This document shows, one piece after another, positions 10,233 to 29,845 of a stretch of DNA of 32,856 bases. Within the stretch, counting starts at the first letter, position 1. Each line of letters opens with the position of its first letter. The notes below the pieces were generated by a model. That model saw nothing but the letters and a program-made list of their open reading frames with translations. It did not search any database and was not told the origin of the DNA. The stretch comes from a virus (Duplodnaviria; Heunggongvirae; Uroviricota; Caudoviricetes), in IMG/VR virus record IMGVR_UViG_2526164692_000012, one strand, 5' to 3'. The position numbers and the translations under genes are program-made.

Positions 10233-10337
10233 TGCATCCTCCGTTGTATGTGGTACGCATACATAGTATTTAGGTACGCATTGATAGTCAATAGATACCT
10301 ACATATCCTGTGGTAAAAAATTATTCAGGATGCGCCG
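10233..10337. promoter_or_regulatory. Divergent arc/ant and mnt promoter-operator region (putative)
   Basis: 105-bp AT-rich intergenic region between divergent arc and mnt; contains direct repeats GGTACGCAT (10252..10260, 10272..10280) and TGTGGTA (10249..10255, 10309..10315) that may be operator half-sites. Confidence 0.45.
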
Positions 10338-10589: not shown

Positions 10590-10900
10590 AACGTATCGCT
10601 ATTTTGTTAATATTGTTCTTCTCTACAATAGTTTTCGCCAAACCAAAATCAGATAATGGCGATCTTAAAGGCCTGCAAGAACTCATGATAACTTCGAAAT
10701 TTGCTGGCATGTGCGGCACAATCAAACAAATGGCAACATTTCAAGAATCAACAAAAATGCCTGGCGGAGATGAGTTCTTACAGCGTTTTCTGACCACAGA
10801 GCAAGCAAGACTAGGAATGAATCCACAGGAATTTCTTGAAGCATGCCAGAAGTCAATTTCAGCTTATACCAATTATTACAATCTAACTTCTGATAAATAA
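10586..10900 (+). CDS. Small secreted protein of unknown function, 104 aa, signal peptide
   Basis: Start overlaps the mnt stop (ATGA); N-terminus MKRIAILLILFFSTIVFA is a typical Sec signal peptide; AT-rich. Confidence 0.6.
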   Translation: MKRIAILLILFFSTIVFAKPKSDNGDLKGLQELMITSKFAGMCGTIKQMATFQESTKMPGGDEFLQRFLTTEQARLGMNPQEFLEACQKSISAYTNYYNLTSDK

Positions 10901-10925
10901 TAGAAAGGATTTTATAAATAACTTT

Positions 10926-11411
10926 ATGAAAAAATCACTATTAATTATCCCGCTTCTGCTGGCTGGATGCGCAAAAGTAAGTGACTACCAAGCAAGTTGC
11001 GAACAACGCTATCCAAAGCTTAGTGATATGGCTAATTGCCTTGATGCCAGCGTGAAGAACGACTCACGCATGGCATCAGCACCAACACCTAAGCTGTATG
11101 TCCTTGCTGCGAAGATGCTCGGGCAAGGTGTCGATCAAGGCAAGATAAGTGACGCACAGGCAAGACTTGAGCTACAGAATCTTTATGTTCAATTACAAAG
11201 CCAAGAACAAGCCCAACAAATAGCACAAAGCCAAGCATTCCAGCAGGCTTTATTGAATTATCAGGCTGTAAACACAATGCAAGCGATCGAGCAAAAAGCG
11301 CGCCAGCCTGTTATAACTCAACATTACCCAACACGCGTTGACACATATACAAACTGCAATTCAGGATTTGGAAACACGGTAACATGCAACAGTAGCAGTA
11401 ATATCAGGTAG
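10926..11411 (+). CDS. Lipoprotein of unknown function, 161 aa
   Basis: N-terminus MKKSLLIIPLLLAGC has a lipobox (LAGC); Gln-rich coiled-coil-like middle region; Cys-containing C-terminus. Confidence 0.6.
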   Translation: MKKSLLIIPLLLAGCAKVSDYQASCEQRYPKLSDMANCLDASVKNDSRMASAPTPKLYVLAAKMLGQGVDQGKISDAQARLELQNLYVQLQSQEQAQQIAQSQAFQQALLNYQAVNTMQAIEQKARQPVITQHYPTRVDTYTNCNSGFGNTVTCNSSSNIR

Positions 11412-11425
11412 TTATATCTTATCTT

Positions 11426-13273: not shown

Positions 13274-14736
13274 TCCACCGTAAATTGAATGCCTGATTTT
13301 GAGGTATATGATCCGGATTGACTCTGCTGCTGTTGGGTATTTGTCGGTTGTTGGCTATTGCTCTGTTGTTGACTATTTGCAGCACTTGAAACCACCAAAG
13401 CATCATAAACGCGACCAGACTGACCACGTAATGAGTTATATTGGCCCTGCATTTTTCGCATTTTTGTTTCAGTAGCAGCCTTGGAATCACCGGGCTGAGG
13501 CAGGTACATTTTGGAATACTCCTGCATCTCTGGCAGAGTAATTGCTGCACCTGTTTCTGGGCGCAAAATTGCATACAAGGCGTCTCTCGCATTTACCATA
13601 TATTGCTGCTCCGCTGGTGATAGGCTTAAATTTGCAATAGTCCCATCACCAAGAGAGCGATTTATTAATGCAACTCGCTTAGGGTCAATGCTTTTACTAA
13701 GCTGATTCATTGAGTCCATTGAATCTTTTAATCGCAAAGCAAATCCTGCCGCCTTCTTGGAACCCTCATTAGCCTTATCTATGATGCTTTGCGCTTGTGG
13801 CAAGCTAATTGGTTTAATGCCATCACCAGATATAGGTTGGTTTAGTTTTCCGGCTTCCTCGCTGCCATCGGTGTAATACTTAGTTACCGAGCCATCAGGA
13901 TTGGTTTCAACCTTAAGTAATTTCTTAGCATTGGGATTAATTCCCGCCGCTGCCGCAAATGCCGCTGCACCATCTGGATCCGCCTTTAACATTTGCGCGT
14001 ACTGATTGTAATTCTGCATTGCGGCTGTTGGTGCATATGCTGACGTTAACGCATTTGCTCGGCTAATATCCTGCCCTCTCGCCTGAAGTGCTTCACCAGC
14101 CTGATTGCTGCGGATTGTCTCTGCCAGCCTGCCTCGGTCAATATCACGACCAGCCATCTTGTCCTGAACATTGAAGTAATCAATCGGACCAAGAGCAGCC
14201 ATTCCAAGGTGATCAACAAACTCACCAAATCCTGAAGGATTCTGCTGATACATCTGAGCAACGCTGTTAGGGTCAACACCGACGCGAGTCAGTTCCTTGG
14301 CGTTGTTTTGCAGCCATGATTGCATTGCTTCTGGAGACGATGACGCAAGGCGTGCGCCAGCCGCTAAGGTGCCGATAGAATTGCGCTGCTCTTCATCAAT
14401 GAATCCCATGCCTTTACGAACGGATTCAATCTGGTCTGGATATTGAGTAGCCAACTGACGCAAAGCACCGCGATCACCAGACGCATAAGCATTAGCGTAT
14501 GCCTGCTGAAATTCTTTCTGCCGCTGAGCCTGCTTTTCCTGCTGAACCCCCCCCGCAATACCTGAAAGGCCTTGCAAAGCAGTCAGCCCAACATTGTTAG
14601 CGCCTGAACGCTCAATATCATTGTTCTGCCTGATAAGCTGAAGCGTATTGCCGATGTCATTTACGCTCGGAGCGTTTGAGTTGACGCCGCCGATACCAGC
14701 CAACAATCCGCCATTTGATCCTTGCCAAGTAGCCAT
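13270..14736 (-). CDS. Ejection protein, P22 gp20-like, 488 aa
   Basis: Position between the gp7-like and gp16-like genes; 4-nt stop/start overlap with the downstream gene; Gln/Ala-rich like gp20. Confidence 0.65.
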
Positions 14737-14745
14737 GATTACCCC

Positions 14746-15438
14746 TTAAAACAACGAACCAAGCAATCCGATACCAGCACCAATGCCAGCGCCCCAAGGT
14801 GTTGATGTTCCCAAAAGGCTGGCAAGACCTGCACCGGCAATCGCACCAGACGTTCCGCCACTAATTGCTGTCTGAAGACTTGATGGTTTGTTGGCATTAG
14901 CAGCGGCAAGAGCTGCGCTTTGCTGTGCAATGCTGCTCATGTTGTTGGCGTACGTCTGCCCGGCGTTTGCCTGACCTTGCAGAGCACCAAGCCCAACGTT
15001 TGCCAGATTGTTGTAATTGCTCATCTGATTTGATAACCAAGACTGACCGAGTGTCGGCGCGATCGTAGCCAGTTGATTGCTTGTGGCTGTCGAACCAAGT
15101 CCACCCGTCGCCTCCGCAGCAGCAAGACTCTGGTAACGCGCCTGACCTGCAAGGTCTTTATACTGCTGAGAGTTGTAATACTGATTAAGTGCCTGCCCCT
15201 GACCTTCTAAACTGGAAAGATTCTGAAGCTGGTTAACATACTGCTCCGCAAGCGGCGTGAACGGAGCAAGGTTTTTCATGATCGTCTGCCACTGCTGATT
15301 TTGCAGGTCTGCGGCATACTTCTGAGCTTCTGCTGCATACTTTGCGCTTTTATCAGAGCTGCCACCTTTCCCGCCTTTTTCAGGGCAATAAGGTTCCTCG
15401 CCGCGCAGTTTTCTGCCCAGCTTAAATGCATATAACAT
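14746..15438 (-). CDS. Ejection protein, P22 gp7-like, 230 aa
   Basis: Position and length; Gly/Ala-rich C-terminus. Confidence 0.6.
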   Translation of the reverse strand: MLYAFKLGRKLRGEEPYCPEKGGKGGSSDKSAKYAAEAQKYAADLQNQQWQTIMKNLAPFTPLAEQYVNQLQNLSSLEGQGQALNQYYNSQQYKDLAGQARYQSLAAAEATGGLGSTATSNQLATIAPTLGQSWLSNQMSNYNNLANVGLGALQGQANAGQTYANNMSSIAQQSAALAAANANKPSSLQTAISGGTSGAIAGAGLASLLGTSTPWGAGIGAGIGLLGSLF

Positions 15439-15440
15439 AG

Positions 15441-15896
15441 CTATCTCCCGTGATTCAGGAAGTCGATTAGTTCTTCGCGTGTGGCGCTGTAAAACGTCAC
15501 GTCATCCACGCCTTTGAAGTATTTCTTGATGGTTCCTACACGCTTAAGGCCAATCATTGCGCAGTACATCTGACCGTGGCGGAATTTGCGCGCAGCGAAC
15601 GATGTGACGCACTGAACGGTGGTGTTAGTCAGAATGTATCGCCAGAACGCCAGCCCGATTTCCTTGCTGAAGCCGCGAATCTCTGACAGGTACATGGCGT
15701 GGCAATCGAATGTCAGCGGCTGAATCTCCTGATAGTAAACAATGCCGCCAAACTGACCGTGCACGTTAACCTCAAAGTAACGGCATTCAGGCTTGTAATC
15801 GTATCCATCACCATTGTTGCTTCCGGCAATAATGTCAGGGTGATTTCCGACTGCTTCGATCAGGTCGATGTTTCGCGTTGGTTTGAACTGAATCAT
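15441..15896 (-). CDS. Head-assembly/ejection-associated protein, P22 gp14-like, 151 aa
   Basis: Position between the tail-needle and gp7-like genes; length. Confidence 0.55.
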   Translation of the reverse strand: MIQFKPTRNIDLIEAVGNHPDIIAGSNNGDGYDYKPECRYFEVNVHGQFGGIVYYQEIQPLTFDCHAMYLSEIRGFSKEIGLAFWRYILTNTTVQCVTSFAARKFRHGQMYCAMIGLKRVGTIKKYFKGVDDVTFYSATREELIDFLNHGR

Positions 15897-16744
15897 TACT
15901 GCTCCGCGATTATCTTGATGGTTGTGGCAGTAAACGCCGCACCATTTGACTGAATGGTTAACGTGCTGCCATTTGTGGCAAGAAAGCCGTCTTTATCCAC
16001 GCTGAAGAACGTAGCTAACAAGATGTTGTCGGTTGTTGTCACCGCATTACGACTGCTAACCAACGTGTCAGGAACAGAACCGGAAAATGTTAGCTGCATT
16101 GACCTGTTGGCGGTTCCGCTGGGCCACGTCCCGACAATCGACAGCTTGAAGAACAGGGTTTTGTTCTCGTTGAACACAACCATCTTGTTGTTAACAGTGT
16201 CGAAGAATGGTGCCAACGTGCCGGATGACGGCGTGAGCGTTTTCAGCAGGCTAACAAGGTTGGTCGGCGCTGTCGGGATGGTTACTGATACGCCAGAGTA
16301 AACAACCTCTGACTTCTTGCGAGTAGTGGCATACTCCAGAGCATCGATGCGCGATTCATGGTCTGAAACCTGCGACTCCAGCGACTGAACTCTGGTATCA
16401 AGCGACGCAATATCGCTTTCATTCTGAGCGATTCGCGTTTCATGTTCCTGAAGAGTTGATTCTGCCTGGCTGATTCTCTCCTCATGATTAACAAGCGTTG
16501 CTTCCGCAGCAGAAATTCGCTGCTCATGGTCAGCGAGAATCACATCCTGCTCATCGTTCCTGACTTGTGCGTCATAAGCGCCCTGTCCGGCCTCGTTGGC
16601 CTTGTTAGCCACGTTACCAACATCAGTACCCTGTGCGATAACGTACAGCAGATATGACTGCGAAAAGATATTGCGTGGAAGGACTGATGTGTCGAGCCGT
16701 GTAGCCTGAATGATTACCGGCACATTGAGATTCGAATCCGCCAT
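15896..16744 (-). CDS. Tail needle protein (P22 gp26 / Sf6 gp9-like) with C-terminal domain, 282 aa
   Basis: N-terminus [43 protein letters not shown]...NDEQDV matches the P22 gp26 N-terminus as recalled; followed by heptad-like HE-RI repeats and a C-terminal domain absent from the 233-aa P22 protein. Confidence 0.8.
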
Positions 16745-18162
16745 TACTCAATCCTTATCTGGCAGCCAGACAGAGTGACAGGTGACTTCGTGATAACGCG
16801 CAATTTGAATCCGACATTTTTCCTTATTCGCCCGACACGCTTCCACAAAACGCGTTTGTCGTAAACGAACGGTTCATTCTGCTCAATTATCTGCTCACGC
16901 CCGTAATTGATGCCGTCAGTGGTTGCAGAGAGAAAAAGGCGGTCAGCATACTGCGCAACTCCAGTTGAAGATTCAACTTCAAGGTCGAAAACTCTGGCGT
17001 TATCTGCTTTGAACAACGGAGTAAACAGCAGGTGTTCCTGTTGAAGCCCATACTGGCTGCTGATATCGAACTGCAATTTGCCGGTAACCGATTCCAGCTT
17101 ATCGCCGCACGTTATCTGATTGCCTTCGTAAATGAAGTCGATAGCGCGGTACACATCGTCATACAAGCCAGTTTTCAACACACACCATTGCGGACCATTG
17201 GCGCTTGAAGATGCGTCGTACACGAGAACATGGCGCGGAAGGTGGATAATCAGCAACTCATGAGCATCAAATCTCAGCGATTCCATCACACCATCAGCCA
17301 GTTCATCAGCAGTGTAGGAGCGGAGGATTTTCTCAATGCTCGCGCTGGCGATTGGTGAAACCTGACCGGATCCGATGATGTATACAGACGGAGCACCTGT
17401 TGCCGGATTGCTGATGAACGCATAAGAATCAGCGAATGGCGTTTTGCAGTAAGTCCCGGCGATGCCTTTTTGCACCATCAGTGATGGCTGTGCGACATAC
17501 AAAGCGGCACCAACGGTGGTTGCGCCAGTCAGGGAAAAATACTCAATCGTCGATGAACCAAAGCAGACGATGAAGTCTCGCCATGTTCCGATTCCGATGA
17601 TGCCGTCAGGCTGCGACTCGGCACGATATTGTGCGCTGTAGCGGTCAGGATGCGATTCGTCTTCAAGGTCAGTGATAAACCATGAATCAGTGCCGTCTTT
17701 TGACCACGCATAACGCCCGCGTAAGCGCGTAATGTCACGAACAGAACCTAACTCATACTGCGTAAACCCGCTGTCTGCAGGCCAGTTTGAGACGGTTTTA
17801 ACCGTGCCATCATAGCGATACTCGACCAGTTGACCATTAACGCCTACAGCCTGAGATGTCCGACCATGTGCCATTGATACGCGACCACTTCCAGCGACGT
17901 CACCGACTTCGCTTTCGCCTTTGTAGAGCTTCCCACCACACACGCGATAAACAGCATTCTGCGCCATGTTGTACTCGACACCGCGCGATACACCATTCAC
18001 ATCAGAACGTTTGGCAATGCCAGGGAATGAGCGAAGATATCCGCTGCTGTTGAGTATTTCTTTGGGTGTAGCCAACATATTCACTGGCAGATAGTCGATA
18101 TAGTCGGCGTTTCGAAAGTCTTTGCCGACACCTTTCATAAGCGGAAGTTGCTGAATCGGCAT
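16744..18162 (-). CDS. Tail hub/accessory protein, P22 gp10-like, 472 aa
   Basis: Position and exact length match to P22 gp10 (472 aa). Confidence 0.65.
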
Positions 18163-18170
18163 TTATTCAC

Positions 18171-18653
18171 CTATGCGTTTGGGATATCGCCATCAATCAG
18201 AGGGAGATCGCCTGGATAATATCGGTCAGATGTAAACACGTCATATTTATTACCCTGTCCTACAGGAAAATCTCCACGTCGTCGCATTGAAGGAACAACC
18301 AGAGTGTCGGTCATCAAGGCATCATATGAGCGTTTGGCGTTACTGAGAACTTGCGGAGTTGGTTCAAGGCTGTAATCAGATAGCATTCTCAGCAATAACT
18401 GATAGCCTACTGCGTGTTTGTATTTTCTTGGAAGACCTGACTCATCATCTGGTAATGGCTGCTCATCTCCAGTTGCGAAAGCGTAACCAATGTCGCCGGG
18501 GTTAATCATCCACTCGGACATCATATCTTCCAGATCATTTACACCATCTTCAATTGATTGCGGCTCAACATCAGTCAGCGATGCATTAGAAGCAATAGCA
18601 AACTTACGAAGCGCAAAAAGGACGATCTCACCCTTTGTCAGTACTGTTGCCAT
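18171..18653 (-). CDS. Tail adaptor/head-completion protein, P22 gp4-like, 160 aa
   Basis: Position downstream of the coat gene and length. Confidence 0.6.
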   Translation of the reverse strand: MATVLTKGEIVLFALRKFAIASNASLTDVEPQSIEDGVNDLEDMMSEWMINPGDIGYAFATGDEQPLPDDESGLPRKYKHAVGYQLLLRMLSDYSLEPTPQVLSNAKRSYDALMTDTLVVPSMRRRGDFPVGQGNKYDVFTSDRYYPGDLPLIDGDIPNA

Positions 18654-18813
18654 TGTCTGCCGCCTTACGACCTCGCTTACTGGTCGGTTTCAATTCATCA
18701 ACTGAGGCAACAAAGCCCAACTTTTCGAAAAACTGGAAGTCTTTTTCTGCGATAACGGCCTGTACATGTCCGGATTCGTTATCTGCGGCAAGGAATACAC
18801 TCATGCGATCCAT
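18628..18813 (-). CDS. Small hypothetical protein, 61 aa
   Basis: ORF between the coat terminator and the gp4-like gene; no recognised family. Confidence 0.35.
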   Translation of the reverse strand: MDRMSVFLAADNESGHVQAVIAEKDFQFFEKLGFVASVDELKPTSKRGRKAADNGNSTDKG

Positions 18814-18828
18814 ATTGTTTCCTTAAAA

Positions 18829-18849
18829 CATAAAAGGGGCGGAAGCCCC
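18829..18849 (-). terminator. Intrinsic terminator/attenuator after the coat gene (minus strand)
   Basis: Minus strand: GGGGC-TTCC-GCCCC hairpin followed by UUUUAUG; immediately 3' of the coat stop. Confidence 0.6.
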
Positions 18850-18855
18850 TTGTTA

Positions 18856-20127
18856 TTACGGATTACCGAAGAACTGACCGCCCATGTGAGGGTTAAAGCA
18901 CACATATGCAGGCAGTAAGTCAAAGCGCATTTTTTGCACGTTGGCATCGCCATCTGCGTATTTATGTACGCGGATGGAGAAACCTTCATATGTTGCAACA
19001 GCAGAATCAATACTGTGCAGTTTCGGCAGTGGGATAGAGCCAAGTCCACAGAAGAACTTGTTATAGAACAGGTTTGGCTTCATTGTCTGGCTAGCAGTGC
19101 CTACTACAGATACGGCATCGCCTGCCGCTACCTGACGACTTACAGAGTTGTACTGCGGGTTTGTAGTGTCATAAATCGGAACACCAGAAAGCGTAACCGT
19201 CACATCGCCACTGCTGTCTGAATTAGCATCAGCAGTAACCGTTGCAGTGAAGCTAATTGGTGTGGCTCCGTTATACAACGCCTGTTTGGTCTGCTGTTGC
19301 AGCCAGTAGGTATTGGTGAATTTAACCTGATCACCAGCTTTCAGAAAACCTGTAACGCTGGCTGTCGCTCCGGTCAATGTTACAGTGAACTGGTATGAGT
19401 CTTTAACTGCGTTATAGGTAACAGTTGGCTGTGTTTTGACTGTCAGTGTTCCGCCAAATGCCCCCTGCGTACGAGAGGCAAGCCCATTAGACATCAGTGC
19501 GCGAATGCCGCCAAAATTGGTTGGAATCTGCGCATTCTCCCATGCAGTACGAACCAATTGATCTGAAGCGTGCAAACCAGTCTGCGCATCAGCAAGTCGC
19601 TGTGCAGACCATGGATCCATTACAGCATAGTTTTCACCTTCATTAACGCCGAGGTCTTTCAGGAAAGATGCCGTCTGCGCAACATCAGACCATTTGGTGA
19701 TTGGAGTATTGGGGCTACCAAGTGACAACGCACCGTTATTCATCATGAAGTGAGCAAGCTCTGTTTCAAGGTCGGTAACGATTCGCTGGCGAACCGGCGC
19801 GAGAATTTCTTCCAGTTGGTTAAGCTTGATCGCTTCCTCCAGTTGCTGATATTCAACAGCAACAGTGATGTAGTTACCTACACGCCCCGTAGCTTTACCT
19901 GAGTTCAGGTTGTTTTTATTTTGCCCTGAAATATCACCAGTGGGAGTACGGAGGGATGAGAATTGATGCGGACGTTTAAAGCTAACGCTATCGCCAGTGC
20001 TGGAGTTGATTTCACCTGCCAGCAACTGACGGTCTACGGTTTTCGCCAGAACTAAATCTGACATAAAACCAGGAAGGAATTTTTTCAGAACGATTTGACT
20101 GACGTTACTGTCGAGATTGTTAGGCAT
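18856..20127 (-). CDS. Major capsid (coat) protein, 423 aa (Sf6-type)
   Basis: Position after the scaffold gene, length, and following terminator; sequence is unlike P22 gp5 as recalled, consistent with the Sf6 coat lineage. Confidence 0.65.
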   Translation of the reverse strand: MPNNLDSNVSQIVLKKFLPGFMSDLVLAKTVDRQLLAGEINSSTGDSVSFKRPHQFSSLRTPTGDISGQNKNNLNSGKATGRVGNYITVAVEYQQLEEAIKLNQLEEILAPVRQRIVTDLETELAHFMMNNGALSLGSPNTPITKWSDVAQTASFLKDLGVNEGENYAVMDPWSAQRLADAQTGLHASDQLVRTAWENAQIPTNFGGIRALMSNGLASRTQGAFGGTLTVKTQPTVTYNAVKDSYQFTVTLTGATASVTGFLKAGDQVKFTNTYWLQQQTKQALYNGATPISFTATVTADANSDSSGDVTVTLSGVPIYDTTNPQYNSVSRQVAAGDAVSVVGTASQTMKPNLFYNKFFCGLGSIPLPKLHSIDSAVATYEGFSIRVHKYADGDANVQKMRFDLLPAYVCFNPHMGGQFFGNP

Positions 20128-20138
20128 TTATCTTTTCC

Positions 20139-21023
20139 TTATTCGATTTTTGCGCCGGGGCATAATTTGTTGAATTCGTCTTGTTTCGCATCAGCACCGC
20201 CACCACGTACTTCCGGCTCTGGCTTGATGGCTTTCTTTGGTTTTGGAGCAAGGCTTACCTGTTTGCTAATCTGCCCCAAGAGGAATGCTGCGCGAATTGG
20301 ATCTGTCTCAGCGGCTACACGCTGGCGTAATTGCTGGCTCTTACCTAAGCCATAGGCGAGTAGTTCAGAGCCTTCGTCTGCACAGTGAATGATGATTTCC
20401 TGCTGAATTGGTGGTAGCTCACTAAGAACAATGGCTTCCATTTCCTGATAATCTTTCACAGGAAGTTTGGCTGCCCGTTGTTTATGCGCTTCTACCCTTT
20501 GCTGGAAACGCTGCTGGTATTCCTGTTGCTGACGTAGTTTTTGTTGCTGCTGCTGTTCGACACGGCCTTTTTTCTCATGCCAATCAGTCAATGCCTGTTC
20601 AAACGCCTGTTCGTCATAATCACACGACTCAAGAGTCGGTTTTGGTGGAATAGCGTCTGGTTGTGGTTGCTGATGTTCCGCAGGCTTGGCTAATGCTTCC
20701 TCAAGCTGGCGTCGCAACTCACGGTTTTCTTTCTGTGTTTCTTTGAAGACTTTGCGAAGATCTTTCACCCATTGCGGTGCAGGTTGCCCGTCAATGTGAT
20801 CATCATCGTCAGCGTTAAGCTGAATTTCTTCATCACCAATACGCAAGGCGTAATCTTCTGGTGTCTCTTCGGTTTTTTCAGGATCAGTTGCCATCTCTTT
20901 TCCGTTGTCATCCTGGCTTTCATTCTCAGGCTGTGACTCTGTTTGGATGATGGTTTCTTCTGCATTTTCCTGTGTTTCAGACAGGTCAATAACCTGACCG
21001 TCGATGATCAGTTCGTTTTCCAT
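20139..21023 (-). CDS. Scaffolding protein, 294 aa
   Basis: Highly acidic, Gln/Glu-rich, coiled-coil-like composition; positioned between the portal and coat genes. Confidence 0.65.
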   Translation of the reverse strand: MENELIIDGQVIDLSETQENAEETIIQTESQPENESQDDNGKEMATDPEKTEETPEDYALRIGDEEIQLNADDDDHIDGQPAPQWVKDLRKVFKETQKENRELRRQLEEALAKPAEHQQPQPDAIPPKPTLESCDYDEQAFEQALTDWHEKKGRVEQQQQQKLRQQQEYQQRFQQRVEAHKQRAAKLPVKDYQEMEAIVLSELPPIQQEIIIHCADEGSELLAYGLGKSQQLRQRVAAETDPIRAAFLLGQISKQVSLAPKPKKAIKPEPEVRGGGADAKQDEFNKLCPGAKIE

Positions 21024-21036
21024 TGATTACTCCTGG

Positions 21037-23163
21037 TTAACTCGGCATTAAGTCTGCCGGTGACTGTGGTGGTGACTGGAATTGCTGTTGTTGTGACTCG
21101 GCGACATCTTTCAGAAGGCGTATTGCCTCCATCACTGCTTTGTCATCGATGTTTCTGGCTTGAGCCAGTTTATAGACAGTGTTTGCCTGACTCTCCATCG
21201 CATCCTGCTGGGCAGTAAATGCTTTGATTTGAGTTTGAGCAGTTTCGTTAGTTGCTTTTTGCGCTTCTGCCTGCGCTGCTACCATTTGCGCCTGAGCGAG
21301 AACCATTTCAGGATTTGGCTGGCTTTGTGCTGCCATTTGCGCCTGTTGAACAATCTGCTGCTCTTTCTCATTGCGTGGTTTTGCAATACCAGATATCAGC
21401 AGTTGGTTTCGGTTGTACTCTTTGAAGTCATCAAGGCCTTCGCCATCGATATTGTCCAGAATAATACCCTGAATTGCCGGGCGCATTGGGTCTGTTGGAA
21501 GCATAGAGCTAAGGACATTTGTCAGTACAGAAACCGTTGCATCACGTCGTGCTGTGTAGCTTGGTCCAACATCAACCGTCACATCGTATCGACCGACAGA
21601 AAGGTCATTTAACGCAACAACAGCCCCTGTTTGCCTGTCAACAACCTGTGCGCTCATGACAGCGATATCATCACTTCCATCTTCGTTAACGATGCGCACT
21701 TCACGTTCTGAACCGTACACTTCACGCGCCATTGACAGCCATACTTCACCAGCGCGTTTAAGACTTTTCGCCATATTGTCCAGATAGATAAACGAAGCCA
21801 TATCTGCTCTGTTCATCAAGTTGTTAACCGTTTCCTGAGCAATATTACTTGGCATCTGCTGCATGGCCTGACTGCCGCCTGTAACCTCCTGAATATCTGC
21901 ACTGGTTTGCTGTAGTAATGCAGCCAATGCCTGATTCATAACCGCAGGCTGTGTATATCCTGCCGGGGTAGCTCCAGCGATAATGTTGCCAGATTTATCT
22001 CTCACTTCGCGCAACGGCAAGAACGCTGGGCGTTTCTTGTTACGAGCCTCCCAGTGCTTCTCAAGTCCACGAATTTGCTCCATGCCAACTATAGGGATCT
22101 GACCGGGGTCTTGCGCTGCAGTATCAGCCAGCATTGATACCTGAAGGTTATACAAACGCTGTGGATCCATTGCTTTTGCAATGTGCCCTTCGACACGCTC
22201 AATGTCATCAATGAACCAGCGTTTTCCATAAACCGGGATGAGGGGGATATGTTCACCAGGAATACGTCGAGGTTTCTCAAGGAAACCATCACCATCCACT
22301 ACGGATACATACACACGACGGCGCTTCACTGAGCGCCTTGCCACTTCATGAAATCCAGCTATTGCCAGTTCATCTTCAATATCTTCAACCTGATCACTGT
22401 CGTATGTTGCAATCTCTCCAGTGATTGGATGTCGATAACTGATGACGTCAACAGACTCTTTACGAACTTCGTAATACTTCGCTATGTAAATAACATCTGC
22501 ATCAAACCAGTCATATTCCCAACTGGTCATAGACGTTACGTCCAGAGAAGCAGGAGGTTTCTTTCCGTATTCAGTCTCATATTTTTCAGGTGACAACGAA
22601 TACATGCAGAACGCCCACAACGCGTCAGATTTGTCGTACTTCTTAGCGTCAGGGTCAAACCACACAGAGCGCGACGGGTCGTATATTGGTTCAATAGCAA
22701 TACGCTGACGATCGTCCATGGGGTCGAATTCATTGACCAGCATCGACGTCAAACGGAAGCAACCGAAACCACCGGTAGCAGCGTCGTCAAATGCATTATC
22801 GCAAGCCTCACCGCCATCAGTTTCTTCGTAGTCAGCACGGAACAGACCATTTAATTTATTGGCTAACTCTTCGCTTGCCTCTCTGTCACCAGGGCGAAAC
22901 TTAACAGTGATTCTGTTATTGCGGTATTCTGCAATGATGCGGTTAAGTTCAGTTGCTACCTTATTGATTTCAAACTTAGGATACTTCTCGAACTGCTCAT
23001 CAAGCTTAGTTCTAGCCGCCGTTGCTCCTTCCCATTGACCTCCGGGGACACGAGCAAACCTCGTAGCTTCAATGCACTTTTCGCGCACTTCCTGCTGTGG
23101 AGAATAGGCGCGGTCAAACCTGAGCATGATCCGCTCATGTTTTTTCTCTAATGTCTCTGCCAT
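21037..23163 (-). CDS. Portal protein, about 708 aa
   Basis: Position downstream of TerL; start placed at MAETLEKK directly after the TerL stop (the ORF track extends 24 codons further upstream, overlapping TerL). Confidence 0.75.
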   Translation of the reverse strand: MAETLEKKHERIMLRFDRAYSPQQEVREKCIEATRFARVPGGQWEGATAARTKLDEQFEKYPKFEINKVATELNRIIAEYRNNRITVKFRPGDREASEELANKLNGLFRADYEETDGGEACDNAFDDAATGGFGCFRLTSMLVNEFDPMDDRQRIAIEPIYDPSRSVWFDPDAKKYDKSDALWAFCMYSLSPEKYETEYGKKPPASLDVTSMTSWEYDWFDADVIYIAKYYEVRKESVDVISYRHPITGEIATYDSDQVEDIEDELAIAGFHEVARRSVKRRRVYVSVVDGDGFLEKPRRIPGEHIPLIPVYGKRWFIDDIERVEGHIAKAMDPQRLYNLQVSMLADTAAQDPGQIPIVGMEQIRGLEKHWEARNKKRPAFLPLREVRDKSGNIIAGATPAGYTQPAVMNQALAALLQQTSADIQEVTGGSQAMQQMPSNIAQETVNNLMNRADMASFIYLDNMAKSLKRAGEVWLSMAREVYGSEREVRIVNEDGSDDIAVMSAQVVDRQTGAVVALNDLSVGRYDVTVDVGPSYTARRDATVSVLTNVLSSMLPTDPMRPAIQGIILDNIDGEGLDDFKEYNRNQLLISGIAKPRNEKEQQIVQQAQMAAQSQPNPEMVLAQAQMVAAQAEAQKATNETAQTQIKAFTAQQDAMESQANTVYKLAQARNIDDKAVMEAIRLLKDVAESQQQQFQSPPQSPADLMPS

Positions 23164-23165
23164 GT

Positions 23166-24578
23166 TTACCAACCGGAGGATGAGGGAACGTATATTTCTG
23201 TTTCTTCGCGGACCAATGCCGGGCAATGCATACACATCATCAGCGCATCAGCCAGGTTAGGAGATGGGATACCGAGCTTCTGCTTCATTTCGACCTTAGT
23301 CATAAGCTCCAGCTTCCCGTTGTTATTGAATTTGCGCTGAATCTGCGTAAGTTCTGCAAACAGCTTCTCCAGCATCTTCTCGCCTATCGCTTCTTTGTCG
23401 AAACTCAGCATGTCGTCGGGGTCTGCATACTCACCGTAGACAACCGCCCGATATGTCAGATACAGCCTGTCAGCCAGCGCGTAATAGAATTGCGCTCTCT
23501 TATTGCGGAACACATCACCAATAGTGCGAACGTTGTCGCCCTGTACGACTTCATCAGCCCATGCTCCGGCCTGATACGGTGCATCTTCATCGAATGGCGA
23601 TTCGCTGCCCTTGAACATCGTGGCGGTGATTTTCTTGCCGGAGAACGCTTCCGTTGTCTGTCTGCGTAGCCCAGCACCAACACCATCACCATCCCACAGG
23701 TAATGGTCAGCGCCGTCTTCAATCGCCAGCGAAGTAGCCCAGTCAGCACCCTCGTTGATGTCCATCAGCAGACCTTCGGCAATGCGCTTAACCACCGAAC
23801 CGTGACGCGATGCGTAACCTTTAGCATCTGGCCCTGTATCTGACGGGTCATGTGCAGAAACAACCGCGCCTTTCGCTTTCCATCCGAGTTTCTTGTGCGC
23901 ATCGGTTGCGGCTTCAAGCCATTCACGTTTGATGATTGCCATATCACTTGCGCTTACTGGCTCACCAAGCCAGATGTGACGATACAGTGTCGGATTTCTG
24001 CGTTTGCACTCTTCCATCTCCAGACGGAGAACTTCAGGAAAGTGCGGATTGTCGGTGTAGTTCACCGTCAGCAGGCAAATATCATCTGGAGGATTTACGA
24101 CGAATCGCTGATAGGTATCGTCGAGTATGTTTTTCGGGTTAAAGCTCACCCATATTTCGGAAAACGGCTTGCGGATGGTTGGTATCAGGATATCCCATGA
24201 TTCCTTCGTTACCGCTTCCGCTTCTTCCACCCAGCAGATATCAATGCCTTCGAGCGATTTAATCTTCGTCGGGTTGTTTTTTATGCCGTAGAACATGAAT
24301 TCAGCATTCGTTCCGAGATGACGAATCATTGAACGCTGAATTTCAAACTCAGCCGAATACCCTTCCCGCTCTATGGTGTCTTCAAGCAACCGGATTACCG
24401 AATCGCTGATACTGTTTTGCAGTTCACGAGCACAGAGGATGCGCACCGGCTGCCGACGCGCCGCTTCAACAAGCAGCCTTGCGATTGCCCATGACTTACC
24501 GCTACCTCGACCGCCTTTGGCGACTTTGTAGCGATGCGCCTCAATGAACGGTTCAAAGATAGGATTAATCGAGGTCAT
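23166..24578 (-). CDS. Terminase large subunit, 470 aa
   Basis: Walker A motif KGGRGSGKS near the N-terminus; length and N-terminus match my recall of Sf6 gp2; 4-nt overlap with the upstream TerS. Confidence 0.85.
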   Translation of the reverse strand: MTSINPIFEPFIEAHRYKVAKGGRGSGKSWAIARLLVEAARRQPVRILCARELQNSISDSVIRLLEDTIEREGYSAEFEIQRSMIRHLGTNAEFMFYGIKNNPTKIKSLEGIDICWVEEAEAVTKESWDILIPTIRKPFSEIWVSFNPKNILDDTYQRFVVNPPDDICLLTVNYTDNPHFPEVLRLEMEECKRRNPTLYRHIWLGEPVSASDMAIIKREWLEAATDAHKKLGWKAKGAVVSAHDPSDTGPDAKGYASRHGSVVKRIAEGLLMDINEGADWATSLAIEDGADHYLWDGDGVGAGLRRQTTEAFSGKKITATMFKGSESPFDEDAPYQAGAWADEVVQGDNVRTIGDVFRNKRAQFYYALADRLYLTYRAVVYGEYADPDDMLSFDKEAIGEKMLEKLFAELTQIQRKFNNNGKLELMTKVEMKQKLGIPSPNLADALMMCMHCPALVREETEIYVPSSSGW

Positions 24579-25015
24579 TTTCCGAATAGAGTGCTCATCG
24601 GTGATGTTTCAATCTGGATTGCGCCGCCGTCTTTGCCTGTTAGCTCGTGATCAACCTTGTCGCGCCATTTATCCTTCTGTCGATTCTTAAGCCAGAAGAT
24701 GGCAGCTGTTGTATCAGGCGGGTAATACTTCTCAAGCGGAGTTTCGACAATTCTGTTTTCAATAACACGAATATCGATGTCTGGAGCCACGAAGCCCATA
24801 GCGCGTTGATAAAGACGATCACTAACTTCTGCATCAGCGACGGCCTTACCCTTTTTTATGGACTCCGAAAACTTAGGATAATCAAGCTTCCACTTGTTAA
24901 TAGTTGACTCACTGACTTCAAAGAAATCAGCAAGTTCTGCATCGGTGTAGCCCAGCAAGCACAGTTTGCGTGCCTGTTCGGCATACGCCTCTTGATACTT
25001 TGTTGGGCGCGCCAT
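24575..25015 (-). CDS. Terminase small subunit, 146 aa
   Basis: Immediately upstream of and coupled to TerL; N-terminal HTH-like region (DAELADFFEVSESTINKWK). Confidence 0.7.
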   Translation of the reverse strand: MARPTKYQEAYAEQARKLCLLGYTDAELADFFEVSESTINKWKLDYPKFSESIKKGKAVADAEVSDRLYQRAMGFVAPDIDIRVIENRIVETPLEKYYPPDTTAAIFWLKNRQKDKWRDKVDHELTGKDGGAIQIETSPMSTLFGK

Positions 25016-25017
25016 GT

Positions 25018-25260
25018 TTATGCTCCTGTAGTGAACAGGTCTAACGCTTCCTTCGATTTACGCACCGCTTCGATAGTGCGGGTCGTGATATCTGAATTAG
25101 CGCCACCTGACTGGAAGTGAATTTTGAATAGCTCAAGCTTCAGCTCGTCAGTGCCAATGAATTGAAATGCTTCTTCTGCGGCTGCGTTCTGGTTCATGAC
25201 CAGTTTGTAAATCTCTAACTGGAATTTCTGTTCTTCAGTCATGGGAATAATCTCTGCCAT
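25018..25260 (-). CDS. Small hypothetical protein, 80 aa, upstream of terS
   Basis: ORF with plausible RBS (GGAG) ending adjacent to the terS start; hydrophilic, so not a holin. Confidence 0.45.
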   Translation of the reverse strand: MAEIIPMTEEQKFQLEIYKLVMNQNAAAEEAFQFIGTDELKLELFKIHFQSGGANSDITTRTIEAVRKSKEALDLFTTGA

Positions 25261-25379
25261 TATTGGCTCCGTTTATCCGTTAAAAGGGATATCAGTTAAG
25301 TTATCCCGTGTAGGGTATAAGCCATTATCAAAGCCACTCTGTAGGGAATGGCTTTTGTGATGGCGGTAATGACTCCAAC

Positions 25380-25883
25380 TTATTGATAGTGTTTTATGTT
25401 CAGATAATGCCCGATGACTTTGTCATGCAGCTCCACCGATTTTGAGAACGACAGCGACTTCCGTCCCAGTCGTGCCAGGTGCTGCCTCAGATTCAGGTTA
25501 TGCCGCTCAATTCGCTGCGTATATCGCTTGCTGATTACGTGCAGCTTTCCCTTCAGGCGGGATTCATACAGCGGCCAGCCATCCGTCATCCATATCACCA
25601 CGTCAAAGGGTGACAGCAGGCTCATAAGACGCCCCAGCGTCGCCATAGTGCGTTCACCGAATACGTGCGCAACAACCGTCTTCCGGAGCCTGTCATACGC
25701 GTAAAACAGCCAGCGCTGGCGCGATTTAGCCCCGACGTATCCCCACTGTTCGTCCATTTCCGCGCAGACGATGACGTCACTGCCCGGCTGTATGCGCGAG
25801 GTTACCGACTGCGGCCTGAGTTTTTTAAATGGCGGAAAATCGTGTTGAGGCCAACGCCCATAATGCGGGCGGTTGCCCGGCAT
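25380..25883 (-). CDS. insB: IS1 InsB' frame, 167 aa (expressed as InsAB' transposase by -1 frameshift)
   Basis: Sequence matches IS1 InsB as recalled; overlaps the insA 3' end in the -1 frame. Confidence 0.9.
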
Positions 25884-26077
25884 CCAACGCCATTCATGGC
25901 CATATCAATGATTTTCTGGTGCGTACCGGGTTGAGAAGCGGTGTAAGTGAACTGCAGTTGCCATGTTTTACGGCAGTGAGAGCAGAGATAGCGCTGATGT
26001 CCGGCGGTGCTTTTGCCGTTACGCACCACCCCGTCAGTAGCTGAACAGGAGGGACAGCTGATAGAAACAGAAGCCAC
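25802..26077 (-). CDS. insA: IS1 InsA, 91 aa
   Basis: [40 protein letters not shown] zinc-finger N-terminus matches IS1 InsA as recalled. Confidence 0.9.
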
Positions 26078-26132
26078 TGGAGCACCTCAAAAACACCATC
26101 ATACACTAAATCAGTAAGTTGGCAGCATCACC

Positions 26133-26282
26133 CGTAGAGCAAAGGATAAAGCTCACCGGAAAGAAGTAAATAACAAAATACTTGCTGACCTTATCAAGGT
26201 TGGTGCATCAGAAGATGTTGCTAAAAATATCATAACAGCCATCGTAAAAGGCGAAGTATTCGCAACAAAAATAACCTACTAA
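26133..26282 (+). pseudogene. 3' remnant of an early-left gene truncated by IS1
   Basis: Reading frame is open from inside IS1 through ...KILADLIKVGASEDVAKNIITAIVKGEVFATKITY-stop, with no start codon outside IS1. Confidence 0.4.
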
Positions 26283-26306
26283 TAAAACCAACATAAGGAA
26301 CCACCC

Positions 26307-26438
26307 ATGATTTACGCAATCGCGGGAGGCGCTCGCATGGGTGCCTTCCAATTAAATGAATCTTTACTTGAACGAATCACCCGTAAATTACGTGACGGAT
26401 GGAAAAGAGTTGAGGTCTTATTATGCGCAATGAAATAG
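26307..26438 (+). CDS. Small hypothetical protein, 43 aa
   Basis: ATG preceded by AAGGA; overlaps the next ORF in the usual phage early-operon fashion. Confidence 0.35.
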   Translation: MIYAIAGGARMGAFQLNESLLERITRKLRDGWKRVEVLLCAMK

Positions 26439-26575
26439 CCATCAATCACCAGATGCTTCGTGCTGCACAGAACAAAGCAGTAATAGCCAGATTTATTGGT
26501 GATTCAAAAATGTGGCTTGAAGCAAATAAAGCGATGAAATCAGCTATCAACCTTCCATGGTATCGCAGGAAATGA
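26423..26575 (+). CDS. Small hypothetical protein, 50 aa
   Basis: Overlapping start/stop arrangement with both neighbours. Confidence 0.3.
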   Translation: MRNEIAINHQMLRAAQNKAVIARFIGDSKMWLEANKAMKSAINLPWYRRK

Positions 26576-26742
26576 GCTTTACAGATAACTGGTCAGACGA
26601 AGAATTCATTCGTCAGATGAAAGAATTATTCGGTAACGAAGGAGATATTCATGTCACTTGCAACCACCGTGAAGGAGAGCAAGTTACAGAGACGCATGTA
26701 CACGCAGCAGGCGTTAATGTATCGCCAGAAGGGAGATCGTGA
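26572..26742 (+). CDS. Small hypothetical protein, 56 aa
   Basis: ATGA overlap with the preceding ORF; acidic. Confidence 0.3.
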   Translation: MSFTDNWSDEEFIRQMKELFGNEGDIHVTCNHREGEQVTETHVHAAGVNVSPEGRS

Positions 26743-26831
26743 AGGTGTTCGCGTCTTTTTAAATGCGGCAAAGACTGAAGTATTAAATCAGCGTTATTTC
26801 CTTGGGCCATGCCCATTCTGAGAACAAACAT

Positions 26832-27437
26832 ATGAGCAAAGAATTTTACGCAAGACTGGCAGCTATTCAGGAGAACTTGAACGCGCCAAAGAATCAGTAC
26901 AACTCATTCGGTAAATATAAATACAGAAGCTGCGAAGACATTCTTGAAGGCGTTAAGCCGTTACTGAATGGCCTGTTTTTATCAATCAGCGATGAAGTTG
27001 TGTTGATTGGTGATCGGTATTACGTGAAAGCCACGGCAACTATTACCGATGGCGAAAACAGTCATACGGCAACCGCTCTTGCACGAGAGGAAGAAAGCAA
27101 GAAAGGAATGGATTCTGCACAAGTTACGGGAGCTACAAGCTCTTATGCACGCAAGTATTGCCTCAATGGTTTGTTCGGCATTGATGATGCGAAAGATGCA
27201 GATACCGACGAGCATAAACATCAGCAGAACGCAGCAGCAAAGCAATCAAAACCATCACCTACACCTGAACAGGTTCTAAAAGCATTCACTGACGCAGCAT
27301 TGCAGAAAAACACCGTGGAAGAGCTTAAACAGGCGTTCGCCAAAGCGTGGAAGATGCTCGAAGGCACACCGGAGCAGCACAAAGCGCAGGACGTTTACAA
27401 CATCAGACGAGACGAATTAGAAGGAGCTGCTGCTTAA
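26832..27437 (+). CDS. erf: Erf-family single-strand annealing recombinase, about 201 aa
   Basis: MSKEFYARLAAIQENLNAPKNQYNSFGKYKYRSCEDILEGVKPLL... matches my recall of P22 Erf very closely through the first ~140 aa. Confidence 0.7.
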   Translation: MSKEFYARLAAIQENLNAPKNQYNSFGKYKYRSCEDILEGVKPLLNGLFLSISDEVVLIGDRYYVKATATITDGENSHTATALAREEESKKGMDSAQVTGATSSYARKYCLNGLFGIDDAKDADTDEHKHQQNAAAKQSKPSPTPEQVLKAFTDAALQKNTVEELKQAFAKAWKMLEGTPEQHKAQDVYNIRRDELEGAAA

Positions 27438-27820
27438 TGGCACATTCGATTACTGTAAGACTAAACAAGCCCGCAAGAGAGTTTCAGGCCGGGGAAAATA
27501 TCGGATTCAACATCCGTGCTGGCGTTCAGTATTACGATCGCCAGACAAAAAAGAAAGAATGGACAAACTACAGCACCGTTGTATTTGCCAAGCCGGGAGC
27601 GCAAGCGGATTACTACCGTAGTGTTCTTGTTGAAGGTGGCATTGTGGAAATTACCGGAGAAAACATCAGGGTTGATGTTTATCAGGGGCAAAATGGTCAA
27701 TCCATCACTCTTGAATTACTGAATGCAAAGATTGGATTTGCAACTTCAGGAAACAGCCCGCAGCAGCAAAGTAGTAACCAGCAGAACACTCCTGTATACG
27801 ACGATTCCATCCCATTCTGA
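27437..27820 (+). CDS. ssb: Phage single-stranded DNA-binding protein (short SSB), 127 aa
   Basis: Start overlaps the erf stop (TAATG); C-terminus ends ...PVYDDSIPF, resembling the acidic SSB tail DDDIPF; Gln/Ser-rich linker before the tail. Confidence 0.6.
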   Translation: MAHSITVRLNKPAREFQAGENIGFNIRAGVQYYDRQTKKKEWTNYSTVVFAKPGAQADYYRSVLVEGGIVEITGENIRVDVYQGQNGQSITLELLNAKIGFATSGNSPQQQSSNQQNTPVYDDSIPF

Positions 27821-27843
27821 TTTAGAAAAATAAGGATTTAATT

Positions 27844-28140
27844 ATGCCAGCGCCTCTGTATGGTGCGGATGACCCGCGCCGCTGTTCCGGCAATTCCGTA
27901 TCGGAGGTGCTGGATAAATTCAGGAAAAACTACGACCTGATAATGTCGCTACCGCAGGAAACGAAAGAGGAAAAGGAATTTCGCCATTGTATATGGCTTG
28001 CAGAGAAAGAAGAACGCGAGCGAATTTACCAGACATCAATCCGACCATTCCGCAAAGCCACATACACCCACTTCCCTGAATATATCGACCCGCGCCTGCG
28101 TAATTACCGCTCACGCTATGGCGCTATCAGTAATGACTGA
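27844..28140 (+). CDS. Hypothetical protein, 98 aa
   Basis: ORF with RBS-like AAGGA upstream; no recognised family. Confidence 0.4.
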   Translation: MPAPLYGADDPRRCSGNSVSEVLDKFRKNYDLIMSLPQETKEEKEFRHCIWLAEKEERERIYQTSIRPFRKATYTHFPEYIDPRLRNYRSRYGAISND

Positions 28141-28150
28141 GGAATTAACA

Positions 28151-28441
28151 ATGAAAACAATGAAGCTAAACATCGACCTCGGAAAATACGTTATTACCGG
28201 AACAAAACACGATCTGATTCTTAGCGAAAGAGGAATTATCAAAGAAGACGAGAATGCAGGGAAAGAAACACTAAGTCGTATCGGTTATTACAGCAAGTTT
28301 GAGCATCTGGTTAAAGAGTTATGCAACCGTGAAATCCTGTTATCTCAGGCGCAGACGCTACAGGATATTCAGCAGCATATCGAGACTTTAGGTGTGTCAC
28401 TTAGCATGGCTATTGACCAGTTCGTGGAGAGTAAATCATGA
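28151..28441 (+). CDS. Hypothetical protein, 96 aa
   Basis: ATG preceded by GAGGA; no recognised family. Confidence 0.45.
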
Positions 28442-28605
28442 GAGGACTTGCATACAATCCCGGCATTCTTCCGGCAGAAATGATTATTCGCCAGCGCGTA
28501 AAGCCAATGCCATCGAGAGAGGAATTGCTTAAGAGAAATTCTTTTCCATCAGTGAATCAAAACAAATATCTGAATGCGATGTGGCGTAAAGGAGGCAACC
28601 AGTGA
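28438..28605 (+). CDS. Hypothetical protein, 55 aa
   Basis: ATGA overlap with the upstream ORF and GTGA-type overlap with the downstream ORF. Confidence 0.3.
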
Positions 28606-29273
28606 GCAAGATTGACTATCAGGCACTGCGTGAGTTAGCAAAACAGGCAACACAGGGCGAATGGGTCGCATTCATTTCGCCGGGCACTGATACATATGCG
28701 GTGCATACGCCGGGGGATGAACGTTGCGGAGACATTATCAAATGGCCTGGCTTTGACGGCCAGAAAAATGCAGAGAACAACGCAGAATTTATCGCAGCTT
28801 TCAACCCTAAAGTAGTGCAGGCACTGCTGGATGAACGGGAAAGAAACCAGCAATATATCAAACGCCGCGACCAGGAGAACGAGGACATTGCGCTAACGGT
28901 AGGGAAGCTGCGTGTTGAGCTTGAGGAGACAAAATCAAAACTCAACGAGCAGCGTAAGTATTACGAAGGTGTTATCTCGGATGGAAGTAAGCGCATAGCA
29001 GAACTGGAAGCACGGGAAATAAAACCAGCCAAAGGTGAAGTTCTTGTCGTTGTTTCTGGTTTTACTGGTTGCGGAAAAAGCGCCATTGCCGGGGAAATAG
29101 AAATCGCGATGAAGGCTATTGGTGTACCGGTTCAGTGGACTAATGGCGATGCGGAAAAGCGCATGACAGGAGCTGACTGGCTGACAGCGATTGAGATGTA
29201 CAAACCAACAGTGCGCATCGTGGAAGTTAATGTGCCACGCGCCGCAGGCATTCGCATCAAAGAGGGTGAGTAG
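28602..29273 (+). CDS. Hypothetical early protein, possibly Ea22-like, 223 aa
   Basis: GTG start preceded by strong SD AAAGGAGG; central coiled-coil segment; family assignment is tentative and from recall. Confidence 0.5.
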
Positions 29274-29635
29274 TGCGTGTGGCATGTATCGGCTTGTTAC
29301 CGTACCCGACTCGTTTTTGGGCTTCTGCGCTAATTGCAAAGCCACATGTCCTGATAGCTGACAACATCATCCCGGCACCAAAGCGCCGCCATACCGGTAT
29401 TGCAGCGGCACGACGAGCAGCAAAGAGACGCAGGAGAGCAAAACGATGAAAAACCGTAAAGCAAAGATTCTGTTAGCTCGCAGAAACGGTGTTGGGGTCT
29501 GGCGATGGGTGAGGATTAGTAACAGACGAGTGAGGTTGATGGGGTGTTGCGGGGTGATGGGTCACAGTTGTTGCAAAAAGCCCAGCGCGGCGCAAAACCG
29601 CTGGAAAAACTACTTGCGGACTAAAGGAGAGTGAT

Positions 29636-29845
29636 ATGGCTATCGCTGCAAGTTACACCATGCATCTCTATTGTGATTGTCGCCAGTGTACGGAAGGTGT
29701 ATATCCAGTGCCAGACTTCGGTGAGTATATCGGTACGTCATGGTCTGGTTGTGCAAAAGAGGCCCGTAAAGACGGGTGGCGAATAAGCAAAGACAAAACA
29801 CGTACTTTTGCGCCCGGGCATAAAGTTTTGAGGATTAACACATGA
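29636..29845 (+). CDS. Small Cys-containing hypothetical protein, 69 aa
   Basis: Strong SD (AAGGAGAG) before the ATG; CxC...C pattern near the N-terminus. Confidence 0.45.
   Translation: MAIAASYTMHLYCDCRQCTEGVYPVPDFGEYIGTSWSGCAKEARKDGWRISKDKTRTFAPGHKVLRINT

Follow-up and report, generated by a model that had tools for sequence, protein, structure and literature searches.

A single IS1 associated with a contiguous 12,552-bp loss from the argW prophage of Escherichia coli O104:H4

The window, meaning the whole stretch of 32,856 nucleotides that was analysed, contains a P22-like prophage related to Sf6, HK620 and CUS-3, namely the one that occupies argW in the Stx2a-positive lineage of E. coli O104:H4. 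Comparison with an intact counterpart of this prophage showed one IS1 to be associated with the contiguous loss of 12,552 bp in an ancestor of the 2009-2011 strains. Neither a new mechanism nor a new kind of element is revealed; the value of the locus is that of a fully resolved IS1-associated prophage deletion, in which an intact near-isogenic progenitor places both breakpoints to the base and two further nested steps are visible in sister strains of a medically important lineage.

The argW locus and the layout of the prophage

The window was found to be 100% identical to E. coli O104:H4 2011C-3493 and to 10 other finished O104:H4 genomes, the finished genomes being those of the 2011 outbreak clade and of 2009EL-2071. 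The order annotated by RefSeq within the window is yfdF-mlaA-yfdC-argW, followed by the P22-like prophage and by the csc sucrose genes. On the basis of att repeats, tRNA and annotation the whole defective prophage (P22-like, Lederbergvirus) was delimited to 3358..31167. Its attL core CTGCAGGGGACACCA (3358-3372) forms the 3' end of tRNA-Arg-CCU (argW) and recurs at attR (31153-31167) as a 15-nt direct repeat of the argW 3' end, i.e., in the arrangement of a KplE1-type site, with integration into the argW 3' end and a core repeated directly at both prophage ends. The prophage now measures 27.8 kb, and 39.6 kb are obtained when the lost segment is restored and IS1 removed, which is a normal size for a P22-like genome.

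Next to attL are found the genes for the integrase IntS (3534..4691, plus strand; 385 aa, intact by RefSeq annotation and Pfam) and for an acyltransferase combining AT3 and SGNH domains (4920..6830, plus strand), a putative O-antigen acetylase representing the "conversion" gene of the prophage. Left of IS1, the minus strand carries the tailspike, immI, ejection, head and terminase genes; right of IS1, the genes from cIII-kil-erf-abc through to a torI-type xis (30879..31079; annotated as an excisionase of 66 aa) are on the plus strand. The reading frames of IntS and of the TorI-type protein are both intact (annotation, Pfam). The morphogenetic genes show the P22-type order terS-terL-portal-scaffold-coat-gp4-gp10-needle-gp14-ejection proteins-immI-tailspike, at the end of which the O104-specific tailspike (6901..8880, minus strand; 659 aa) possesses a P22-type head-binding domain, as documented by a match to PF09008 with E = 3e-67. 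A megablast search identified the terminase/portal region as 96-97% identical to HK620, Sf6, CUS-3 and several Lederbergvirus prophage records, and the early-left region as 96-98% identical to mEp213, HF4s, Sf101 and CUS-3.

Within the int region, a perfect octanucleotide tandem repeat (GTTTAATA x 5.5) was identified at 4678-4721, where it overlaps the int stop codon and lies about 200 nt upstream of the AT3-SGNH acyltransferase gene. The repeat is one unit shorter in NCCP15648 and 55989, its copy number hence being strain-variable, and as the stop falls within the second unit the Int protein is unchanged by the number of copies. At the equivalent position CUS-3 has the phase-variable heptanucleotide repeats of neuO, and a role of the octanucleotide repeat in acetylase expression is possible. 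The torI-type excisionase gene has one half of an argW 3'-end copy on either side: TTGCAGGTTCGATTCC, the annotated att core in CUS-3, is located just upstream of it at 30844-30859 and the KplE1-type core CTGCAGGGGACACCA about 75 nt downstream (compare argW 3343-3372), as though a 30-nt att segment of tRNA origin had been split by the xis cassette. A small DUF550-like pseudogene fragment with a missing C-terminus (29842-29967, RefSeq) lies upstream of a gene with a dATP/dGTP pyrophosphohydrolase domain; as this fragment is also present in the intact prophages of NCCP15648 and 55989, it predates the IS1 deletion.

IS1 and the segment missing from the prophage

The IS1 copy (IS1B type) was found to be complete, with 768 bp at 25365..26132 on the minus strand. 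An earlier note on this DNA had placed IS1 at 25261-26290, and this observation was confirmed, the quoted interval being wider than the element by about 100 bp of left flank and about 158 bp of right flank. The left end of the element is the IRR, which starts with GGTAATGACTCC (25365..25387), and the right end the insA-proximal IRL, which ends with GGCAGCATCACC (26110..26132); these terminal inverted repeats match at 18 of 23 positions, size and repeats both being those of the IS1 family. The 91-aa product of insA (25802-26077, minus strand) contains Zn_ribbon_InsA and HTH_Tnp_IS1 domains (PF03811, PF12759), and the insB' frame (25380-25883, minus strand) encodes the DDE transposase domain (DDE_Tnp_IS1, PF03400, E = 2e-78), the scores for all three Pfam entries lying far over the cut-offs. 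The A6C motif of the programmed -1 frameshift, AAAAAAC, resides at 25820-25826 (IS1 position 307), and RefSeq labels the element as IS1B transposase with programmed frameshift. Across all O104:H4 variants examined the IS1 sequence is 100% identical.

The 9-mers beside IS1, TGTGATGGC at 25356-25364 and CGTAGAGCA at 26133-26141, differ from each other exactly as quoted in the earlier note. A target-site duplication of 8-10 bp was not found, the 30-nt flanks sharing no repeat of 5 nt or more, and re-inspection of the junction likewise yielded no direct repeat of 8-9 bp, which had been named beforehand as contrary evidence. The missing duplication is expected of a deletion or recombination product and marks the history of this copy, not the IS1 family. 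Left of IS1, an intergenic flank of 104 bp (25261..25364) lies upstream of the first surviving gene of the late operon, which is hkbM-like (DUF2560; 25018..25260, minus strand; 80 aa) and neighbours terS, encoding the small terminase subunit (24575..25015, minus strand; 146 aa); terS and an 80-aa reading frame had already been noted here. Right of IS1, a frame without start codon is open from the first post-IS1 base and ends with a stop at 26280-26282. It represents the 3' remnant (26133..26282, plus strand; 49 codons and the stop) of a 969-nt early-left gene for a coiled-coil protein, sometimes named "TolA" by RefSeq, and its 49 codons are identical to the C-terminus of the 322-aa protein of the intact prophage. 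The gene is cut at codon 274 of 322 with its first 819 nt gone, which bears out the previous reading of an early-left operon beginning mid-gene. The first intact early-left genes are cIII (26307-26438, plus strand) and kil (26423-26575, plus strand; both by RefSeq annotation), which are now devoid of pL and N. As the junction is 100% identical in 11 independently finished O104:H4 genomes, it is no assembly artefact.

The O104:H4 isolate NCCP15648 (Korea, 2001; PMC9423916) possesses the same prophage at the same argW site, intact and without IS1, and its locus (L006) served as deletion reference. Window positions 1-25364 correspond to L006 57-25412 with 99.96% identity, the differences being three substitutions and one 8-bp repeat unit, and positions 26133-32856 to L006 37965-44688 at 100%, IS1 standing in place of the contiguous segment L006 25413-37964. 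As the flanks align to NCCP15648 up to the IS1 ends, the loss is fixed at exactly 12,552 bp, with the left breakpoint at 25364|25365 and the right junction at 26132|26133, and it lies within the roughly 10-15 kb that had been estimated before. The argW prophage of 55989 was considered as deletion reference and rejected, since the coiled-coil/cIII/kil block is absent from this mosaic relative and its immI and lysis modules are not the same ones. This prophage (NC_011748.1 2662000-2708000, L009) shares int, the acyltransferase gene, coat/scaffold and the erf-to-torI segment with the window prophage, and its tailspike is 99.4% identical to that of the window; it differs in the immI, ejection-protein, terS, lysis, Q/nin and replication modules and is hence regarded as a mosaic relative, not as the direct progenitor.

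Starting next to hkbM, the lost block comprises a DUF551 gene, a small ORF and the gene of an Rz-type lysis protein (RefSeq, NCCP15648), followed by those for the GH24 endolysin and the lambda-family holin, by tRNA-Thr and tRNA-Asn, and by Q, a Ser/Thr phosphatase gene, ninH/G/F/X/E/B and two small ORFs. Further to the right it contains a DnaB-type helicase gene, the gene of an O-type replication protein, one ORF, cII, cro and the gene of a LexA-family cI repressor, and it ends with three N-region ORFs and the first 819 of the 969 nt of the coiled-coil gene (85%). The immC, replication, late-regulator and lysis modules, which had been supposed to be missing, were recovered in this block as cI/cro/cII, O, the helicase, Q and holin/endolysin/Rz, and in addition to these predicted modules the nin genes, an N-like region and two tRNAs were lost. 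The latter are located at L006 27601-27756, between Q and the holin gene of the NCCP15648 prophage. Alignment to P22-like genomes, as proposed in the earlier note, gave a consistent result: in CUS-3 the flanks are about 12.8 kb apart and enclose the same modules, with lysis, Q, nin, P, O, cII, cro, cI, N and ral in between. At the left breakpoint, the next bases in the intact prophage are AATAAAAAAGGCCGCC..., which form part of a lost terminator-like hairpin, the breakpoint directly adjoining an A/T tract and this GC-rich structure. As a minor detail, the hairpin folds with -14.6 kcal/mol (z = -2.8) and is followed by a U-run; a terminator scan of the intact prophage gave no call for it.

Full-length copies of the breakpoint-proximal deleted segments with 100% identity were found in NCCP15648 only and in none of the outbreak-clade genomes, hence this DNA was lost rather than inverted or translocated. 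A synthetic IS1-less joint with 300 bp per flank was used as query for the direct joining of both flanks. None of the 361 matching phage records joins them, so that an intact phage running directly from the terS-proximal gene into the early genes, the other case that had been named as contrary evidence, was not encountered, and among 3,085 matching E. coli records the flanks come together in the 11 IS1-bearing O104:H4 genomes only.

For the remnant, the loss extends to cI, cro, cII and the N region with pL and pR, the replication genes, Q with the late promoter region (pR'/qut) and the lysis cassette, immC, replication, Q and lysis modules of a functional phage all falling inside the deleted 12,552 bp. 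As deduced from gene content, the late genes that survive, from hkbM to the tailspike gene, and the remaining early-left genes (cIII, kil, erf, abc through to xis) would be left without their native promoters and antiterminators, and since promoters, regulators, O/P and the lysis genes are gone, the remnant should be unable to repress, replicate, express its late genes or lyse. The immI genes (mnt/arc/ant) survive in the window allele and, again judging from gene content, int, the acyltransferase gene and the immI genes would remain self-contained and keep their own expression signals. A crude consensus scan across the IS1 junctions for outward promoters that might drive cIII-kil or the late genes found none, the only promoter being that of IS1's own insA. 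A candidate hybrid promoter spanning the IRL junction (TTGGCA-17 nt-AAGGAT, identified by eye) has a poor -10 element, and no claim is attached to it.

The structural, int, xis and acyltransferase reading frames are intact and all but three proteins share their accession with the counterparts of the intact prophage, in keeping with the previous statement that structural, integration and conversion genes had been preserved. The three substitutions relative to NCCP15648 across 25 kb (window 7352, 12643 and 23013) are all non-synonymous and alter the tailspike (A510V), an ejection protein (S210P) and the portal protein (G51R), the window allele being the derived one at the two substitutions that could be polarised with 55989. 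Such changes may fit relaxed constraint, three being too few for proof.

Nested deletions and the mechanism of the loss

Four further genomes were found to carry the same right IS1 junction with a different left one, i.e., those of 1070/13 (UK), its pAA- derivative, 2009EL-2050 and FDAARGOS_348. The right junction 26132|26133 is invariant in all 15 IS1-bearing genomes, and the left junction varies between 25364, 9242 and 8615, each with an identical 768-bp IS1. In 1070/13 and its pAA- derivative, as read in the chromosome of 1070/13, the left endpoint lies inside ant (9242..9243), with IS1 abutting 9242 and window positions 9243-25364 being absent, and in 2009EL-2050 and FDAARGOS_348 it lies inside the tailspike gene (8615..8616), with 8616-25364 being absent. 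The most parsimonious order is that the larger deletions arose from the window allele, which is also carried by 2009EL-2071, the sister isolate of 2009EL-2050. Since every later deletion proceeds from the IRR end of the element, the original insertion is more likely to have taken place at the IRL junction within the coiled-coil gene. The breakpoint falls exactly at an IS end, one junction is constant and the other variable, and a nested series of this kind, anchored at one end of the IS, is the classical pattern of adjacent deletion by IS1.

IS1 produces adjacent deletions that start from one of its own ends and leave the element in place; Reif & Saedler reportedly described them for the gal region in 1975, and Turlan & Chandler are said to have described replicative intramolecular transposition of IS1 in 1995. 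The earlier note had read the junction as the signature of an adjacent deletion or of recombination between IS1 copies, which is supported by the comparison with NCCP15648 and by the missing duplication, and a transposase-mediated IS1 adjacent deletion is considered the most likely mechanism of the 12,552-bp loss, being probable though well short of certain. The suggested course of events assumes that IS1 initially inserted into the coiled-coil gene and thereby created the junction 26132|26133. Next, replicative intramolecular transposition by the IS1 transposase, with the IRR end attacking a target 12.5 kb away, just upstream of hkbM, would have released the intervening 12.5 kb as a circle and left a single IS1 copy behind, with unrelated 9-mers on either side and hence without target duplication. 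The same IS1 would then have repeated this process at least twice, reaching ant in 1070/13 and the tailspike gene in 2009EL-2050.

The principal alternative is RecA-dependent recombination between two directly repeated IS1 copies, one upstream of hkbM and one in the coiled-coil gene, which would excise the 12.5 kb and leave one hybrid IS1 with one flank from each parent copy. This route yields exactly the observed single IS1 with non-matching 9-mers, the lineage is rich in IS1 (11-16 matching places per genome), and IS-associated losses are documented at other loci in these strains in Table 5 of PMC3486847. Since the two routes lead to products of identical sequence, they are inseparable by sequence alone. 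What makes recombination the less probable course, to be regarded as a doubtful though not a marginal one, is that it requires two independent same-orientation insertions within one 39.6-kb prophage, that the intact NCCP15648 prophage is without IS1, and that neither 5,426 complete E. coli genomes nor the metagenome scans yielded a parental insertion. The transposase-mediated deletion is favoured because it needs one event per step, whereas recombination needs an extra same-orientation insertion for every step, i.e., a further one for each of the two nested variants. The search for intermediates also covered the simple IS1 insertion with a 9-bp duplication, and no such intermediate was found in complete E. 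coli genomes: 16 E. coli records cover at least 80% of the junction query, none of them being a simple-insertion intermediate, and each E. coli record with IS1 and one flank has either the window allele, one of the nested deletions or, in the case of CE20, an unrelated IS1. The predicted intermediate junctions ...GAAGAAGAGCGTAGAGCA|GGTAATGACTCC and GGCAGCATCACC|TGTGATGGCAATAAAAAAGG had no exact match in metagenome contigs, and the actual left junction is absent from GTDB species-representative genomes.

That the deletion arose independently of any IS, by illegitimate recombination or abortive excision, and that IS1 was inserted at the scar afterwards, is formally possible, with nothing specific speaking for it, and appears highly improbable: a later simple insertion would have made an 8-10 bp duplication, which is not present, the deletions of the sister strains begin precisely at the IS1 end, and no IS1-free deleted allele was found in the collections (361 phage and 3,085 E. 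coli matches). Still closer to negligible is the assumption that no deletion took place, the observed order being a natural mosaic or satellite-like one, the result of inversion or translocation, or an artefact of repeats collapsed during assembly. Mosaicism is high among P22-like phages, and the 55989 prophage at the same site does differ in several modules; however, the right-hand gene is cut within its coding sequence, a version with 99.96-100% identity exists in intact form, the flanks are not joined in any of the matching phage records, the missing segments were not found elsewhere in the outbreak genomes, and independent finishing of 11 genomes gave the identical junction.

The chicken strain CE20 (NZ_CM188248.1, locus L004) was examined as a candidate for the ancestral insertion and rejected, as its prophage is an unrelated P22-like one located at torS, and its IS1 an independent copy. 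In this torS prophage, IS1 occupies 16001-16768, just upstream of the intact homologue of the coiled-coil gene, and an IS100 (L004 2931-4732) adjoins the DUF2560 gene; different IS elements have thus hit the same two neighbourhoods.

The tentative reading that this IS1 is a still-active recurrent deletion generator, having produced a nested series within about a decade of natural outbreak-lineage evolution, is given somewhat less than an even chance. If true, the series would run from the intact prophage to the loss of 12.6 kb and on to the loss of a further 16.1 kb or 16.7 kb, would possibly include the losses of the whole prophage and of csc/dsd/emrKY reported in other isolates, and would document prophage domestication in nature as a dated time series. 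In every sequenced intermediate, int and the gene for the O-antigen acetyltransferase are spared, the latter (4920..6830) being kept in every deletion variant, and this sparing could reflect selection for the conversion gene.

The published record and known systems

The locus has been named "prophage B" (PMC3486847), "O104H4-E" at argW (PMC3551546) and "prophage remnant / D-ROD4" (PMC3303846) in three earlier reports. Scholl et al. (2012) obtained their tailspike here and used it in the construction of an O104-targeted pyocin, described a "prophage remnant" that results from the deletion "D-ROD4" as compared to a complete prophage in 55989, and pointed to the retained acetylase (PMC3303846). 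By Ahmed et al. (2012), the Sf6-like "prophage B" is given as absent from 2009EL-2050, for which Table 5 lists "Prophage elements deletion by IS" (PMC3486847), and by Grad et al. (2013) O104H4-E is described as wholly lost in other isolates, with or without csc, dsd and emrKY (PMC3551546). The relevant passages of PMC3486847, PMC3551546 and PMC3303846 give no exact 12,552-bp interval and no 1070/13 endpoint, do not name NCCP15648 as intact counterpart and contain no remark on a shared IS1 junction. The remnant has been published before, as has the IS-linked loss; adjacent deletion by IS1 belongs to textbook knowledge, and the case is one of ordinary IS-driven prophage decay. What is added by the present work is the base-exact interval, NCCP15648 as intact counterpart, the 1070/13 endpoint and the single IS1 junction common to the variants. 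The deletion accounts for the state of the argW prophage in the 2011 outbreak strain, namely a remnant in which an O104-specific tailspike and a putative O-antigen acetylase are still encoded.

Among known phages, the closest likeness is to the argW-integrating P22-like podophages Sf6, HK620, CUS-3 and Sf101, which show the same gene order as the window prophage, 96-97% nucleotide identity in terminase, portal and hkbM and in cIII-kil-erf-abc, int and xis at opposite prophage ends, and an O-antigen- or capsule-modifying acyltransferase gene between int and tailspike. Unlike these phages, the window prophage is without the central 12.55 kb and possesses an O104-specific tailspike and an AT3-SGNH fusion acyltransferase. 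KplE1, a further defective argW prophage, is reduced to about 10 kb and has no morphogenetic module, and in contrast to it the window prophage keeps the full set of head, tail and ejection genes. With KplE1 (CPS-53 of E. coli K-12; IntS/TorI; Panis et al. 2010, PMC2951348) it has in common the argW core, intS and torI at opposite ends and its defectiveness. To the IS1 adjacent deletions of the laboratory the present series corresponds in that the IS is kept, one junction is constant, the deletions are nested from the IS end and no target-site duplication is found; it differs from such laboratory-selected deletions in that it concerns natural clinical isolates over about a decade.
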